From Flavobacteriales bacterium (GTDB taxonomy: Bacteria > Bacteroidota > Bacteroidia > Palsa-965): a stretch of DNA of 64,000 nucleotides. A program made the translations under genes and the position numbers. The stretch is taken from contig JBEIPA010000011.1 in the NCBI GenBank assembly GCA_040377305.1, positions 117,495-181,494 on the forward strand, given 5' to 3'. The notes under the pieces were generated by a model. That model did not search any database, was not told the DNA's origin, and saw only the letters and a program-made list of their open reading frames with translations. Shown piece by piece: positions 42,529 to 49,979 of the stretch (position 1 is the first letter of the stretch; every line of letters begins with the position of its first letter).

Positions 42529-45500
42529 ATGACAATACTTTTTACTTTACGGAGGAGTTTCGTGCTGTTCGCAGTATTGTTAACGTCTATTCTCCCGGCA
42601 CAAACGTACTGGATGAACAACGCCGGCGGTCCGACGATCGATGAAGGCATGGACATTTCCATTGATGCAGCCGGAAATTCGTACATCACCGGATATTTTA
42701 CCTCGGCGTGTAATTTCGGTTCAACCACATTGCTCTCCAATGGAATCGACGATGTGTTTCTGGCAAAGCTCGATGCAACCGGTCAGTACGTGTGGGCGCA
42801 GAAAGCAGGTGGCACCGGGTCGGAGCGCGGACTTTCCATCAAGACTGATGCAGCAGGTAACAGTTACATCACCGGTTACTTTTACGGGAGCTCAACTTTC
42901 GGAAGTATAACGATCAACTCGGCTGGAGCTCAGGATGCGTTCATTGCGAAGTATGACAATGCAGGAACGTGTTTGTGGGCGAAGAGTGCGGGTGGTGCAG
43001 GACCCGACATCGGAAACGGAATTACTGTCGACAACAGCGGCAACGTTATTGTGACCGGAGAATTTACCGGCACATCTACATTCGGTGCAGCAGTTCTAAC
43101 CAGCATGAACGGAAGCACGGATGTGTTCACCACTAAGCTGGATGGAAACGGAAATTTTCTCTGGACGAAAAAAGGTTCGGCTCATCTGACAGATCGTGGG
43201 ATTGATGTGACTTCCGATAACAGTGGTAACATTTACATCACGGGTCAGTTTTCAGATACAATTACATTCGATGTTGTGCATCTGAATAATATGCAAAACG
43301 CCGTGTTCATTGTGAAGTACGATGCTTCGGGTAATGAAGTATGGTATCGTAAAATCGGTGCGGGTGCAATGAACGTTTCCAATTCCATTGTTTCAGACGG
43401 CACAGGTGTTTATGTCGTTGGTGATTTTCAAGGCACGATCACTTTTTTCGGAACCGTAAATGTGAACCTGACGAGTTCGTGGGTGAACGGAATATTTCTT
43501 GCGAAGTATGATGCCTCCGGAAACGTAATCTGGAATGTTGCGGAAGGTTCAGATTCTCCAGTCACTGCAAGAACAGTTGGTGTGAACGGAACTGATCTAA
43601 CGATTGGCGGACATTTTAAATGCACATTCGATAGTTACAGCGATCGATACATGCCCGCTAACTTTAATAGTTCCGGCTACTGGGATGTTTTCACAGGAAA
43701 GTATAATGCAAGTAGTGGTGCATTCACCATTGCGAGACAAATCGGAGGGAAGGATGATCAAACCTGTAACGGTGTTGTTGCAGACGCCAGTGGCAATCCG
43801 CACATCGCAGGCTCGTACGAAATCGACTGCGTGATTCCTGTCTCCGGAAATTTCTATGGCTTTCCAAATTTTCCGACATATAACATGGTGTCCGCATCGA
43901 ACATTGCAACAACTGGTGGATTGTGCAGTGATCCGTCCTATGCGTCCTATGCGCGTGCATGGTCACAAGGAAGCTCCGATATTTTCGTTGGCAATTTCTT
44001 AGATCCAGCGCGTTCGTTATACGATTATTATTTTCACACAGCATGCAGTGGAGATTTTGTGGGAACATGCATCGATGAATACAACGGTTACGATAACAGT
44101 GATTGTCCGGATACACTTGACGTTTGTTCACAAGCGAACTTGTATGCGATGACGAATACAAGCGTACTCGCATTATCGCCAAATATTCCGCGAATTGGTC
44201 CTGACTTCACCTGGTTGTGGTCGACGGGGCAGACGTCGCAAACGATAACAGTGAGTGCAACCGGGAATTATTCTGTGGTGATGACAACAGCAGACGGTTG
44301 TTACACCAGTGAAGACACCGTTCATCTGATCGTCCATCCGCCACCACCAATTCCATGCATGAGTGATAATGTTATCGTGAATACGAACTCAACAAACCCA
44401 CAAGACCTTATTATTTGTGGAGATTCTCTTTTGCTGGTCGGTGGATGTTTCGCGCCCGGAACAACGGTTGCATGGTATGGCAATCAATTCTCTCCAACCA
44501 ACTGGCCCAATGATTCGGCATGGATTGATACTTCAGGTACGTACTCATTCATAGTCACTGATATTTTCGGGTGCTCGAATGCAGTAACAGTCGACGTCAC
44601 GATCGATCAGCCATTGGCGATGATTGATCCCGCGATGATTTTCCTGAACGATTCAAACTTTGATGATACAATCATTATTTGTGACGGAGATCCGCTTTTC
44701 ATCTATCCATACGATTCGCTGAATAATCCCACCTGGAATTTCGAATGCATAGAAAATGATTCGATTATTTTCTGGAACATTTCTCCCGGTGCGCCAACTG
44801 CAACAATTCTTCCGTATACAGATTGTGTGAATTTCCTTTGGCAACAAACCACAGCGCAGGTTCACGATACTGCATGGTACACGGTGACTGCAACACTTGT
44901 CCGAACGAGTGCATGTGGCAACGACACCATTGTTTTCAGCGACAGCATTTATGTCATAGTTCTACCGGCGCCTCCACCTATACCTTACAATCTCGTCATC
45001 ACAGGCGACACGTTGATGTGTCCGGGTGATTCTATTCCGCTTACAGTTACCGGAGGATCTGATTATGTGTGGAACACAGGTGATACGACTTCAACAATCT
45101 GGATCACGCAAGGAGGAAGTTATTACGTGACTTGCGTCGACACTACCTGTAATGCACTCAACTGTTGTACCGTGAGTAGCGACATCGCGAACATCTACAT
45201 TAATATGTGGCCGCAACCGATTATTACGTTGTTGCCATCCACCGGCGTTATTTGTCCGGGCGATTCAGTGCTCGCAGTTTGCAGTGGAACCGGATCGTTT
45301 GTTTGGCAAGGACCCAATGGACCGATTCCCGGAAACGTAGATTCCATCTGGATTACTTCTCCGGGAATTTACAATTGTATTGTCACGAGCCCTGATAGCT
45401 GTCAATTGCTTTCAAATACTGTAAACATTCAGCAATACAACACGCCATCTATTCAGGCCTCACCCGCAGGAATTATTTGTCCGGGAGATTCTGTTACGCT

Positions 45501-46395
45501 TACACTCGTCGCAAGTAACGGAAGTTTTGTTGCGTGGTTGCCACCATTGAGTGGAAGTGGGTTGACACAGGTTGTGACTTCGGCAGGAACGTATGGAGTT
45601 TCCGTACAAGGTTGCAGCATCATCACCACGGCGTACGTTACCATTGATCCGACCTCAGTAAGTGCAACAATTACTCCGTTGTCGGACCTCACAGTTTGCG
45701 AAGGCGATTCAATTCTGCTTGGGGCCAATTCCGGAATGGATTCTTACAATTGGGCGCCGGGAAATCTCCCGGACAGCATTGTGTACGTTTATCTCGATGG
45801 AAATTACATTCTCACAACGGCAGACAGTGGTGGTTGCGAAGCGCGTGATACCATTTCAATTGCATTTGTGCAGAACAACCTTAGCTCTCCGTTGGTATCA
45901 GATACTTCAGTTTGCCGCGGAATGCCCTTCACGCTTGTTGCAGGTGGTCAACCAACAATTGTTTGGGCAACTGCAAACGGAAACGCATTGTGGACGGGAA
46001 ATGAATTCACGCTTTCATCGGGATTGCAAACAGATTCCACTTTCTGGTTGCTCACAGATGATGGAATTTGCCGCAGTGGAATGACTCCGGTCACAATAAC
46101 GATTGAAGAGTGTCCGCCATTAACACCAAATGTATTCACTCCGAATGGTGATGGATCAAACGACTATTTTCAGTTGTACGAACCCGAAGCAACTTCCATT
46201 CATGTCGAGATCTATGATCGCTGGGGTGTGAAGATTTACGAGTACAATGATTTGTATGGTTACTGGGATGGAACGTATCAGCCAACAGGCAAACTTTGCT
46301 CAGACGGAGTTTACTATTGGATTGCGGATATCGGGTTGTTCAATGGGAACACGAAGAAGAGTGGGTTTGTGCATCTGCTCACGAACGGGTATTAA
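42529..46395 (+). CDS. SBBP-repeat and Ig-like protein with T9SS type B (gliding motility-associated) C-terminal domain
   Basis: SBBP repeats, ICPGDS..L Ig-like repeats and PNVFTPNGDG.ND.F...IYDRWG...WDG...DGVYY. Confidence 0.92.
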   Translation: MTILFTLRRSFVLFAVLLTSILPAQTYWMNNAGGPTIDEGMDISIDAAGNSYITGYFTSACNFGSTTLLSNGIDDVFLAKLDATGQYVWAQKAGGTGSERGLSIKTDAAGNSYITGYFYGSSTFGSITINSAGAQDAFIAKYDNAGTCLWAKSAGGAGPDIGNGITVDNSGNVIVTGEFTGTSTFGAAVLTSMNGSTDVFTTKLDGNGNFLWTKKGSAHLTDRGIDVTSDNSGNIYITGQFSDTITFDVVHLNNMQNAVFIVKYDASGNEVWYRKIGAGAMNVSNSIVSDGTGVYVVGDFQGTITFFGTVNVNLTSSWVNGIFLAKYDASGNVIWNVAEGSDSPVTARTVGVNGTDLTIGGHFKCTFDSYSDRYMPANFNSSGYWDVFTGKYNASSGAFTIARQIGGKDDQTCNGVVADASGNPHIAGSYEIDCVIPVSGNFYGFPNFPTYNMVSASNIATTGGLCSDPSYASYARAWSQGSSDIFVGNFLDPARSLYDYYFHTACSGDFVGTCIDEYNGYDNSDCPDTLDVCSQANLYAMTNTSVLALSPNIPRIGPDFTWLWSTGQTSQTITVSATGNYSVVMTTADGCYTSEDTVHLIVHPPPPIPCMSDNVIVNTNSTNPQDLIICGDSLLLVGGCFAPGTTVAWYGNQFSPTNWPNDSAWIDTSGTYSFIVTDIFGCSNAVTVDVTIDQPLAMIDPAMIFLNDSNFDDTIIICDGDPLFIYPYDSLNNPTWNFECIENDSIIFWNISPGAPTATILPYTDCVNFLWQQTTAQVHDTAWYTVTATLVRTSACGNDTIVFSDSIYVIVLPAPPPIPYNLVITGDTLMCPGDSIPLTVTGGSDYVWNTGDTTSTIWITQGGSYYVTCVDTTCNALNCCTVSSDIANIYINMWPQPIITLLPSTGVICPGDSVLAVCSGTGSFVWQGPNGPIPGNVDSIWITSPGIYNCIVTSPDSCQLLSNTVNIQQYNTPSIQASPAGIICPGDSVTLTLVASNGSFVAWLPPLSGSGLTQVVTSAGTYGVSVQGCSIITTAYVTIDPTSVSATITPLSDLTVCEGDSILLGANSGMDSYNWAPGNLPDSIVYVYLDGNYILTTADSGGCEARDTISIAFVQNNLSSPLVSDTSVCRGMPFTLVAGGQPTIVWATANGNALWTGNEFTLSSGLQTDSTFWLLTDDGICRSGMTPVTITIEECPPLTPNVFTPNGDGSNDYFQLYEPEATSIHVEIYDRWGVKIYEYNDLYGYWDGTYQPTGKLCSDGVYYWIADIGLFNGNTKKSGFVHLLTNGY

Positions 46396-46500
46396 CCACA
46401 TAGGATCATAGCCCGTTGTTTTCTTGTTGGGAGAAAGAATTACATAGTTCACAAGAGAAAATCGCCTTTGGCGATTTTCTCTTGTGAACTATGATCGCGT
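46391..46500. repeat. Palindromic element with 24-bp perfect stem; probable bidirectional terminator
   Basis: CATAGTTCACAAGAGAAAATCGCC (46443-46466)-TTT-GGCGATTTTCTCTTGTGAACTATG (46470-46493), preceded by TTAACCACATAGGATCATAG. Confidence 0.8.
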
Positions 46501-46507
46501 AGCGCCA

Positions 46508-46561
46508 TAGCACCTCCTTGAGTTCCTTATCATCAATCACACTGAGTGAATCAATCATCAC
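46508..46561 (-). pseudogene. Displaced, decaying 3' end of aspS
   Basis: Translates as VMIDSLSVIDDKELKEVL versus [18 protein letters not shown] in aspS (10/18 identical). The first 16 nt are identical to 48284-48299. Confidence 0.8.
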
Positions 46562-48299
46562 CCTGCAATCTGTGCTGAATTAAAACGAGAAAAAAGTTTA
46601 ATCAATCGTTAAGGAAGCTTTTCCGTGAGCGGCTTTCAGAATTTCTTCACCTTGATACACGTATTCAATTGTTATACGTGATTCGTATTGTCCTATAAAA
46701 TCGCGACTCTTAAAATAGGCCACCAATGGGTTAACCTTGTTAAATAAAAATGTTAACGACTCACCTGGCGGAATAACGTTGGGTTGCTCATCATATAAAT
46801 GTTTCTTATAGGTCCCAACCATATTATTTTCGTGATATCCTTCAAATTGATATGTCAATAAGGTCACTTCTTTTGAACCATTGTTCTTAAAGTTGAATTC
46901 TATCTGAGTATTTTCTCCACGTCTTAATCGATTTACAATATAACGAGGTTGAAAGATAAGTTCTGCAGTTTCGAGACTTTCCGTTCCAAAGAATTTGTGG
47001 GCTAATTTCTCCAGAAAGTCAGTTCCATCATGATCTACCACAATTAAACCTCTGTTCTCTAGGACTTTTTTTCTCAGAGGATCGATGTTCTTAATTACCG
47101 CATAACTTTTTCTAGAAGATCTCTGAGTTTTTCTGGTCCAATAGAGAATGTTGTTGGTGTTAATATCATTTAATCCAAAACCTATAAATAAGATACACTT
47201 GGAAGAAAAAACATATTCCAGATACGAATTGATGTTAGGGAACTTATTTAGATAATTGTAGAAATCGGACTCTGTAATAATTACATTGTGAATATCATCT
47301 AAGTCGCTGTGAATTTTTACCACAATCGGTTGACCAGACTTGATCTTCCAGATTTCTTCATTCCTCTTAACTGTAACGTATTCAGAGGATATGCCTTCAG
47401 CAAGCTCATCGTAATTCGTTGTTAGGATTGTGTCAAACGGAATACAACTAATTAAATTGAATGGGTGACGATTCTCCTCTGGGATATCAATTAGGATTTC
47501 TTTTTTCAAAAAGGAAATCAATTCATGTCGACCGAATTCAACTTCAAAGTACTCGGCCCATTCAGGAAGATTAATTCCTTCAGCCTCACATCGGCCCAAT
47601 TGGCGCGCTAGTTTTTTTGCAAGGTCTCGACCTGTTGGAATGCCACAGTTATTTGAAAGCCCAGCACCAATAAAAATGACGCATTCGCCTTTATCGATAA
47701 TTTCTGCAATTTTTTCGATGTGATGCTGCATTCTAGGACAATAGCTCTTTCATTTTGTACGCCAAGTCTTCATACATAGAAGGGTTATCGATAATTGCAC
47801 TTCCTTGCTTGGGATCGAAATGCGACTTGATAGAATCAGTAGATATTTTATACACTCCAAATTCGCTGAAATCGGTAAGATAATGGACGAAAATAACAAA
47901 GTCGTACTGAATCTGTTCAAGTGGCGTATGAATCACAAATGAATTAATGGGCTTATTATTCTTAACGCGATGAATATTAAATTCATATTTAGATCCATTG
48001 TCATCCATAGCGTCATACCCTATTTCACTTGTCATTCTTAGTCCTAGTATTTTAACTATTAGACCCGCAATTAGATCATGATGCAGTTTAGTATCTGTCG
48101 TGTCATGTTTTATAAGCCCTTGACTACTCAACCGTTCTACTTTTCTCCTCTTAGTAGTAATGTATTGCTTCAAATGTTTGAAATATTGATTATAATCTTT
48201 TTGCTTAAGAAAATACTCTAGAATGCCGAGATGGTCTAGTGACACAAAAATTTCATCCAACTGCTTTTCATCAAGACGGCTCGGTGAATCAATCATCAC
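46546..48299 (-). mobile_element. Integrase-free islet inserted in the aspS 3' end, bounded by a 16-bp direct repeat
   Basis: GTGAATCAATCATCAC at 46546-46561 and 48284-48299; the interior is visibly AT-rich relative to the aspS core. Confidence 0.75.
46598..47731 (-). CDS. SIR2-like (SIR2_2) domain protein with beta-rich, possibly Ig-like C-terminal domain
   Basis: FIGAGLS...G.P, ILTTNYD, KIH and LFIGFGL.D motifs; ATG is 1 nt after the aspS stop. Confidence 0.88.
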   Translation of the reverse strand: MQHHIEKIAEIIDKGECVIFIGAGLSNNCGIPTGRDLAKKLARQLGRCEAEGINLPEWAEYFEVEFGRHELISFLKKEILIDIPEENRHPFNLISCIPFDTILTTNYDELAEGISSEYVTVKRNEEIWKIKSGQPIVVKIHSDLDDIHNVIITESDFYNYLNKFPNINSYLEYVFSSKCILFIGFGLNDINTNNILYWTRKTQRSSRKSYAVIKNIDPLRKKVLENRGLIVVDHDGTDFLEKLAHKFFGTESLETAELIFQPRYIVNRLRRGENTQIEFNFKNNGSKEVTLLTYQFEGYHENNMVGTYKKHLYDEQPNVIPPGESLTFLFNKVNPLVAYFKSRDFIGQYESRITIEYVYQGEEILKAAHGKASLTID

Positions 48300-49979
48300 A
48301 TCTCTGCCGGAATTGTTTTTCGGGAATGCAATGACATCGCGGATCGAATCGACACCACCGAAGAGTGAACACAATCGATCGAAGCCGAATGCGATTCCAC
48401 CGTGCGGAGGAGCGCCGTACTCGAATGCGTTCATCAGGAAGCCGAACTGAGCTTGCGCTTCTTCCGCTGTGAAACCAAGTGTTTCGAACATTTTTGCCTG
48501 TAGTCCTCTGTCGAAGATTCGGATTGAACCGCCGCCAACTTCAACACCGTTGATGACCATATCATAAGCGTTCGCGCGAATATCTCCGAACTGCGATTTG
48601 TCGGAAAGTTTCGCAACGTCTTCCGGCCAAGGTGCTGTGAACGGATGGTGCATTGCAAACCAACGATCGTGTTCTTCGTTGTATTCAAGCAATGGGAAAT
48701 CAATCACCCACAGGCAAGAGAATTTATTTCTGTCGCGCAAACCAAGTTGTGTTCCCATTTCGAGACGCAACTCAGAAAGTGCTTTACGCGTTTTGTCTTT
48801 TCCGCCAGCGAGAATAAGCATCAAGTCGCCTGCTTCAGCACCGAATGCAGTTGCCCATTTCTTCAGGTCTTCTTCGTTGTAGAATTTATCGACTGAAGAT
48901 TTGATTGTGCCATCGCCATTATAGCGTGCATACACTAATCCGGTTGCACCAATTTGCGGACGCTTCACGAATTCAGTGAGCTCATCAAGTTGCTTACGTG
49001 TATAACCCGCAGCACCTTTTGCACAAATACCGACTACGAGTTCTGCGTCGTTGAATACTTTGAACTCTTTGCCTTTCACAACGTCGTTGAGTTCAACGAA
49101 CTTCATTTCAAAACGTGTGTCGGGTTTATCATTGCCGTAGTACTTCGCTGCATCAGCATAACTCATGTGCGGCAATGTTCCGATATCGACACCTTTCACT
49201 TTCTGGAAAAGATGACGGATCAATCCTTCGAACATTTCGAGAATATCAGCACGCTCCACAAAGCTCATTTCACAATCGATCTGTGTAAATTCCGGCTGAC
49301 GATCTGCACGCAAATCTTCATCGCGGAAACATTTTACGATCTGGAAATAGCGATCCATTCCGGCAACCATCAATAGTTGCTTGAACGTTTGTGGTGACTG
49401 CGGCAAAGCGTAGAACTGTCCGGCATTCATGCGTGAAGGCACAACGAAATCGCGCGCACCCTCGGGAGTAGATTTGATCAGCACCGGAGTTTCAACTTCA
49501 ATGAAATCCTGGTTGCTTAAGTATTGGCGTGTTTCCTGTGCAAGTTTATGACGAAGCATCAAGGACTCACGAACAGGTGTACGGCGAATATCGAGGTAAC
49601 GATACTTCATGCGTAGATCATCGCCACCATCTGTTTCATCTTCGATTGTGAACGGAGGTGTTTTCGCAACATTCAGAATCTTGATTGCATCGCAAACAAT
49701 CTCCACATCACCCGTTCCGATTTTCGGATTCTTGTTTTCGCGCTCGCGAACAGTTCCGCTTACTTGCACAACAAATTCGCGTGAGAGCTTTCGGGCCTGC
49801 TCGCACAATTCGGCATTCGTACCCATGTTGAATGCAAGCTGCGTGATGCCATAACGATCCCGAAGATCAACGAAGGTAAGTCCACCGAAATCGCGAGAGG
49901 TCTGAACCCATCCGCAGAGGGTAACAGGTTTACCGGCATCAGAAAGTCGTAATTGGCCGCAGTTATGAGTACGAAGCAT
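47733..49979 (-). CDS. aspS: Aspartate--tRNA ligase with an atypical ~168-aa C-terminal extension
   Basis: [53 protein letters not shown] and IAFPK motifs. The canonical end is near residue 580 but the ORF runs to 748. Confidence 0.97.

Follow-up and report, generated by a model that had tools for sequence, protein, structure and literature searches.

How does a gene for an essential enzyme come to end in a reading frame that is not its own? The question is raised by the aspartyl-tRNA synthetase gene, aspS, of a Flavobacteriales bacterium (GenBank assembly GCA_040377305.1, contig JBEIPA010000011.1), which lies in the 64,000 nucleotides from 117,495 to 181,494 of that contig. This whole stretch is called the window here and its coordinates count from its first letter. 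A first-pass annotation, made from the letters of the window, had noticed a 16-bp sequence of aspS repeated downstream of the gene and had taken the DNA between the copies for an integrase-free islet that exchanged the C-terminus of the enzyme. The observation in the sequence is confirmed and the interpretation is partly supported. On balance we favour, with modest confidence, the reading that a 1.7-kb, low-GC islet of two genes sits at the 16-bp repeat in the 3' end of the sole aspS, that it most likely entered by site-specific recombination, and that the recombinase is no longer on the islet or never was.

The direct repeat is exact, as had been described. The 16-mer GTGATGATTGATTCAC occurs on the minus strand at 48299..48284 and again at 46561..46546, a spacing of 1,738 bp. 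The first copy (48284..48299, minus strand), which covers aspS codons V561-S565, would be an attL-like core and the second (46546..46561, minus strand) an attR-like core, and identity at 16/16 nt at both ends is what the crossover core of an element integrated at a gene 3' end should show. With up to 2 mismatches allowed, the 16-mer has 2 matches in the window where 0.09 are expected, and at least two matches were obtained in 2/100 shuffles. When both junctions were searched by BLAST in the 5.18-Mb assembly, these two were the only full-length copies. The 1,722 bp between the repeats had been called AT-rich, and their GC content is 0.358 compared with 0.462 and 0.468 in the 2-kb flanks; the fall is sharp and limited to the inter-repeat interval. 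Within it are a 35-nt aspS-like arm, an in-frame extension and a 377-aa SIR2 gene. The replacement tail and the SIR2 gene are thus as first annotated, and the extension is 170 aa long, not 168. A spacer of 36 nt (46562..46597, minus strand) separates the SIR2 stop from the second repeat copy. Its likeness to the part of aspS upstream of the core is a matter of chance, 242/2000 shuffles attaining the same score. No tRNA was found in 40-56 kb of the window, and the Rfam search gave no known RNA, only sub-threshold microRNA-type matches on the palindrome discussed below.

The aspS gene now runs through the first repeat copy into the islet. Aspartyl-tRNA synthetase (AspRS) and a nuclease-like domain form one 748-aa open reading frame (ORF) on the minus strand at 47733..49979, with a TAG stop at 47733-47735. 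AspRS proper corresponds to residues 1-578 (48246..49979, minus strand; Pfam tRNA_anti-codon, tRNA-synt_2 and GAD), and from the GTG at 48245 onward 170 more aa follow with no intervening stop. Over the full AspRS length two equivalog models score well above their curated cut-offs, NCBIfam aspartate--tRNA ligase NF001750 with 803 bits (cut-off 443) and TIGR00459 with 707 bits (cut-off 374), both over residues 1-581 of the aspS ORF. There is a single aspS in the genome, and the further matches there are paralogues at 26-29% identity. In Logan contigs of run X1, which is probably the source sample, a contig of 2,490 nt spans 46639-49128 with 1 mismatch and includes the fusion junction; the in-frame fusion is therefore not peculiar to this assembly. 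The claim that the AspRS tail was replaced and the enzyme joined in frame to cargo holds. An NCBIfam model named 'bifunctional aspartyl-tRNA synthetase/...amidotransferase subunit C', with 723 positions, represents a natural AspRS-GatC fusion, and to judge by its name this suggests that C-terminal additions to AspRS are tolerable in nature. At position 48335 the window has C (Val, in RDVIAFP), and contigs of run X1 and of a second run, X2, have A (Phe), as do the relatives (SIRDFIAFPKNN); the C of the window is a minor allele or an assembly consensus error.

Beyond each copy of the repeat the DNA resembles the end of aspS, and the two ends are not the same. In the active gene there is the 35-nt aspS-like arm borne by the islet (48249..48283, minus strand), which has no stop and now closes the AspRS part; we call it the A tail. 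Downstream there is a stranded 35-nt fragment (46511..46545, minus strand; LSVIDDKELKEV), the B tail, recognised by its likeness to relatives; here the sequence after the repeat reads on in the AspRS frame as VMIDSLSVIDDKELKEV. Scored against VMIDSPSVIDDKQLKEL, the tail found in the closest syntenic relatives, the B tail is identical at 14/17 positions and the A tail at 12/17, and the next best among about 127,900 six-frame 17-mers of the window reaches 6/17. Genome-wide, at least 9/17 is reached by the A and B tails only. That the downstream copy leads into a stranded AspRS C-terminus is thus far beyond chance, 14/17 standing against a background maximum of 6/17. The two tails are identical to each other at 10/18 residues, which reproduces the count made before, and at 18/35 nt after the repeat.

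The A arm behaves as an element-borne substitute gene end. It takes the place of the last 18 AspRS codons, lacks the last 6 aspS codons and the stop, and adjoins the low-GC cargo directly. Its homology to aspS ends at about 48252-48258, and the natural tails nearest to it in a region-limited protein search are of the type SPSPIDEKQLDELNIKLK. The homology of the B tail ends at about 46511, where a miniature inverted-repeat transposable element (MITE) begins. The B tail contains an 18-nt run identical to the loci L005 and L008, and it differs from L005 at 8/35 nt, 5 of these differences being synonymous. Its P>L and Q>E changes, which had been noted as lying at positions that look conserved, do fall at positions invariant in 20/20 relatives' tails. 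Directly after the repeat the B tail reads TCAG, and the A tail, the empty-site contig described below and the relatives read CGAG. The view of the B tail as the displaced native end of aspS is therefore sustained for its derivation from aspS (14/17) and insecure for its native origin (TCAG against CGAG). It remains either the native end altered after displacement, or an end from the lineage in which the first integration took place, or the arm of an older element.

Relatives show what the gene end looks like when no islet is present. AspRS was found in 40/40 relatives (39/39 without the unpublished genome G012) and the extension in 0/40. In 36 of the relatives AspRS is full-length, in stop-to-stop frames of 565-638 aa, and in 4 it is split at contig ends; the corresponding frame in the window has 763 aa. 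The 20 aspS tails that were fetched (19 parsed, 1 read by eye) all keep the Pro, the Gln and the "KEL" that are altered in the A and B tails. In 19/19 parsed tails aspS ends about 17 codons past the conserved Pro, and the last residues of AspRS vary freely among the relatives. Within the genus few stretches of aspS DNA are as conserved as the core, and the synteny of the flanks is as in the relatives, aspS being convergent with a CHU_C gene. In one relative (G034:C75) the AspRS match falls into two pieces that overlap (query 1-490 and 463-580), both in a single open frame of 635 aa, which hints at a small internal duplication or insertion.

The most informative comparison is with run X2, which belongs to a different study and whose Logan contigs do not cover the islet. 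A 347-nt contig of this run equals 48560-48906 with 0 mismatches, and a 346-nt contig equals aspS 48280-48557 with one difference, the same one as in the X1 contig. The 346-nt contig departs from the window 4 nt past the repeat; after its aspS match it has 48 nt unlike the window and then 20 nt of MITE terminal repeat. These last 20 nt are placed at 46392-46411 on the opposite strand and match the terminal repeat that is absent from the MITE of the window. Counted in frame, the core, CGAG, the 48 nt and T|TAA give 17 codons past the Pro and then a stop, a tail length that rests on frame arithmetic. Since the stop falls at the relatives' usual length and the MITE terminal repeat is intact, the contig is an empty-site allele: a near-identical strain has a normal-length aspS directly before an intact MITE. 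With this empty site in close kin, and with 40/40 relatives free of the extension, the description of the insert as foreign and strain-specific is borne out.

The same allele allows some further observations. The TTAA-type flanks of the MITE appear to give the stops of both aspS and the CHU_C gene (window 46393-46395), and the intergenic space of the empty allele would consist of the MITE alone. Between X2 and the window, 6/233 nt differ in the convergent gene (45876-46108) and 0-1/625 nt in aspS (48280-48906). Such uneven divergence across the insertion site suggests recombination tracts. How long ago the event took place cannot be read from the identity of the aspS flanks, since strains that exchange DNA would keep this flank uniform as far as the homology reaches.

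The right-hand side of the islet bears the marks of another element. The palindrome reported next to the stranded end is real (46445-46491, with a 20-pair stem); what had not been recognised is that it is the core of a multicopy MITE, here a truncated one. The family is about 145-163 nt long, ends in inverted repeats of 17 nt (ACCACATAGGATCATAG), has a long palindrome at its centre and is mostly flanked by TTA...TAA. It gave 73 BLAST matches in the genome, among them 35 paired copies (for example L035-L060), of which 25 were aligned; the same type of query did not find it in the five closest species. The joint between the B tail and the MITE was therefore formed in this species. The copy in the window is 5'-truncated (46392..46515, no strand assigned). 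Its terminal inverted repeat on the side of aspS is gone, with about 9 nt more; the copy fills all the space from the B tail to the convergent gene and abuts the stop of the latter. At the joint some 21 nt of the aspS end are missing together with the stop, and so are some 27 nt of MITE. The convergent gene (42529..46395, plus strand) encodes a type IX secretion protein of 1,288 aa with a Pfam CHU_C domain; in the closest syntenic relatives this gene usually lies next to aspS, and its 3' end aligns to DNA downstream of aspS in L005 and L008.

The first of the two cargo genes gives the 170-aa extension (47736..48245, minus strand), a BisI/PvuII-like PD-(D/E)xK domain that starts at the GTG codon V579. 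A search of 1.84 billion cluster representatives found only two relatives of it, stand-alone proteins of 165 and 178 aa with 31-32% identity, and the first residues of both align beside V579. The family assignment comes from the fold and from a profile. A model built from the three sequences (predicted local distance difference test, pLDDT, 68.6; predicted template modelling score 0.63) retrieved NhoI in Foldseek with an E-value of 4e-6 (template modelling scores 0.52-0.58), followed by the N-terminal domain of Eco15I, PvuII and DpnI, and the extension matches PADLOC mREase_II, the small methyl-directed type II restriction enzymes, at 6.7e-7. Identity to the solved members is 11-22%, and the Pfam PvuII match (0.096) is below the cut-off. 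Matches in the ESM Atlas, to viral hypothetical proteins, Bsp6I and PvuII, are leads only. The catalytic (D/E/Q)-x-K motif is not present: the stand-alone relatives have GYDA ... YQIK and the window copy has GYDA ... YEFN, with EFN opposite QIK and the Lys gone. NhoI and Eco15I are described as modification-dependent, homodimeric enzymes of the BisI family with the motifs WD/AD and QVK/QIK, and every active-site change tested in the experiments reported for Eco15I removed activity (PMC11347163). Because the catalytic Lys is replaced, the extension is probably not an active nuclease, with its fold kept, as far as an alignment of three sequences can tell.

The second cargo gene (46598..47731, minus strand) encodes the 377-aa SIR2-domain protein, with an ATG one base past the stop of the fused ORF. 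The protein has the features of a defence-type SIR2 NADase: the PF13289 (SIR2_2) match is at 3.2e-20 and 73 bits (cut-off 24.5), the PADLOC ThsA SIR2 match is at 2.3e-28, and the catalytic His and Asn are present. Its best solved relative is the KomC NADase 8zsf (4.2e-21), followed by DSR2 and ThsA. The motifs TNYD and KIHSD align to KomC, with His141 opposite the His that is mutated in the KomC(H146N) entry. From about residue 250 to the end at 377 the protein models as a generic ApaG-like beta-sandwich (Z 11). Profile searches of the 377-aa protein gave no SLOG domain, and the partner genes and domains of a Thoeris, Kongming or DSR2 system are missing, the nuclease-like ORF being its sole neighbour in the islet. 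Among 5.8 billion clusters one close relative was found, at 63% identity on a 2-kb contig. Phage records held no match to the cargo, and plasmids held SIR2 genes at 27.5% identity only. No AspRS with the extension occurs among proteins of 411-1309 aa, a region-limited search giving ordinary AspRS of 499-614 aa.

How might the arrangement have arisen and how might it work? A single crossover between a circle and a gene end leaves a core at either end, a substitute tail, the cargo and, past the second core, the old tail, which is the arrangement seen here. The lack of a recombinase fits a cis-mobilizable or decayed element; cis-mobilizable elements (CIMEs) are described as attL/attR-flanked decay products that can stack by accretion (PMC5704250). 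The stranded fragment would be the attR side, later scarred by point changes and by a deletion of about 48 nt that reached into the MITE. As the arm has no stop, the frame runs straight into the first cargo gene, and AspRS and the product of that gene share one frame. The first cargo gene follows the arm without a spacer and no upstream region comes with the cargo, for which reason its transcription would start at the aspS promoter. The first product would arise as a fusion to AspRS, and possibly also from the internal GTG or from the ATG in the core; the SIR2 protein would be translated by coupled re-initiation. The two genes are likely anti-phage. The pair would probably act as an abortive-infection module in which the nuclease-like protein recognises (modified) phage DNA and the SIR2 protein depletes nicotinamide adenine dinucleotide (NAD+).

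Several results weigh against this account, some against the route of entry and some against the role of the cargo. Neither islet ORF is a recombinase, which agrees with the recombinase-free islet of the first-pass annotation, and none was found among the 19 ORFs of at least 120 aa across 30-64 kb. The B tail differs from the X2 empty allele at 2 of the first 4 nt past the repeat, a mismatch that a recent, simple attB x attP exchange would not predict. In the A and B tails alike, likeness to aspS breaks off after 35 nt and at the same codon (following DE and KE, respectively), and this shared endpoint is unexplained unless both are element arms or selection limits the likeness. No further example came to light either. 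Within at most 10 kb downstream of aspS in 19 relatives there was no duplicated core (at most 1 mismatch) and no tail-like peptide (at least 9/17). The intact-type tail pattern occurred once in 74/400 other genomes of the class (72/398 without the unpublished genomes G116 and G200) and never twice. The combined A/B pattern, which recovers both copies in the own genome, and the B-type pattern had 0 matches in 185,579 species genomes, and the A-type pattern and an exact 46-mer ending with the core, upstream stretch included, had 0 matches in metagenomes. Neither of the two cargo alignments had a match in viral contigs. These scans, which detect duplicated tails of the given types only, thus found neither an autonomous relative with an integrase nor a second occupied aspS, and no relative showed different cargo at the same core (0 in 19 downstream regions; a second tail copy in 0/74 genomes with a detectable tail). 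A literature search on aspS as an integration site brought up nothing that looked relevant. The right junction (46515-46638) lies outside all listed Logan contigs of X1 and X2, those of X1 breaking at the MITE. No contig listed for either run joins the two repeats in the way an excised circle would, an absence that counts neither for nor against excision. As for the cargo, the nuclease motif without its Lys counts against a role in defence, and the full SIR2 model (pLDDT 45) is too poor to use for the catalytic domain.

An alternative is that no site-specific recombinase was involved. A linear fragment from another strain or species could have been taken in through homologous recombination within the conserved part of aspS at one end and through an illegitimate or microhomology joint at the other, with the duplicated 16-mer a by-product. 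The high conservation of the core within the genus, the unequal flanks relative to X2 with their suggestion of recombination tracts, and the resemblance of the tail-MITE joint to an illegitimate deletion all suit this route. A double crossover, however, leaves no second, differing tail that starts at exactly the same base, and a direct repeat together with a replaced gene end is what marks a single crossover involving a circle; we regard the route as unlikely. Another alternative is tandem accretion, in which B is the aspS-like arm of an earlier element, the present islet entered the attL of that element, and a later deletion took the older cargo, the native end and about 27 nt of MITE. B would then have cause to be unlike the empty allele right past the repeat, arms of equal extent would lose their likeness to aspS at the same codon, the synonymous majority (5/8) of the differences from L005 would fit, and accretion is a route described for CIMEs (PMC5704250). 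The scheme nevertheless needs one element more and a deletion that happens to end in the right places, the changes P>L and Q>E in residues that never vary are unlike a tail that ever served, and no other element with such arms appeared in any scan. We consider it quite unlikely.

A different question is whether the islet persists by virtue of the damage it did. The first-pass annotation had supposed that excision might no longer give a good AspRS, and the islet would then be kept as loss by repeat-repeat recombination gives a defective enzyme, or as tethering to AspRS serves defence. Excision is predicted to give a 611-aa product that has Leu and Glu in place of the invariant Pro and Gln, respectively, and that ends in 33 aa encoded by the MITE. 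This points to such a cost, as does the retention of the fusion in the sole aspS. Against this, there is a single instance, no other AspRS with the domain is present among the candidates of 411-1309 aa, the relatives of the extension are all stand-alone, and with AspRS last residues varying so freely a junk end may be harmless. Such lock-in, or an adaptive fusion, seems to us very unlikely. Equally much of a long shot is our boldest speculation, that a defence cassette without promoter or start codon is built to plug into the end of an essential gene. Its arm would double as the 5' end of its first gene, and integration would hand the cargo host transcription and translation, weld a modified-DNA sensor to AspRS and make loss costly once the old end is ruined. 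An assembly artefact, with the islet or the stranded tail misjoined here, could be suspected at the right junction given the contig breaks just mentioned. The left junction and the whole cargo, however, are on one independent 2,490-nt contig, the 16-bp repeat is shorter than the usual assembly words, and a chance misjoin would not yield a unique stranded tail with the islet on one side and, on the other, the gene found next to aspS in relatives; a misjoin is extremely improbable.

Taken at face value, the sequence means that an essential synthetase exists in fused form only, with a SIR2 NADase on the same transcript, a situation found in one organism. The locus shows the extent to which a tiny mobile insert can rewrite the end of a housekeeping gene. 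It is a natural test case for whether recombinase-less defence islets borrow host genes for expression, and for whether such islets can entrench themselves by spoiling the way back. It also offers a candidate two-gene defence system, a BisI-like fold without its Lys and a SIR2 protein with a beta-sandwich, that has almost no public relatives. If the plug-in cassette were true, defence genes would have a new means of securing both their expression and their retention.

Parts of the arrangement can be compared with known systems. The extension shares its predicted fold and size with NhoI and Eco15I of the BisI family, and the YD ... QIK of its stand-alone relatives resembles the AD ... QIK given for Eco15I (PMC11347163). 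Unlike these enzymes, the window copy has EFN for QIK and is fused to AspRS. The SIR2 protein has, like KomC of Kongming, DSR2 and ThsA of Thoeris, a SIR2_2 domain with GAG, TNYD and His motifs. It lacks the SLOG domain, the long DSR2 C-terminal region and any KomA/KomB or TIR partner, and has instead an ApaG-like beta-sandwich and a nuclease-like neighbour. For the integration itself, phage 21 and the element e14 in icd of Escherichia coli are precedents, in which the enzyme stays functional through a gene end brought by the element and the old one lies stranded downstream; unlike the islet in aspS, they carry their own integrase and restore a proper stop. The streptococcal ICESt1/ICESt3-type elements use the fda gene. 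The islet is like the CIMEs and other elements related to ICESt1/ICESt3 that are described in Streptococcus thermophilus in having attL/attR-type repeats at the end of its target gene and in lacking integration and transfer genes of its own (PMC5704250). It is unlike them in being only 1.7 kb long, in having no known autonomous relative and no known integrase for its site, and in that its substitute end, having no stop, fuses the target protein to the cargo. The kind is therefore a known one, a CIME-like islet at the 3' end of a gene, and it is the outcome that is singular: an essential synthetase fused to a restriction-enzyme-like domain.

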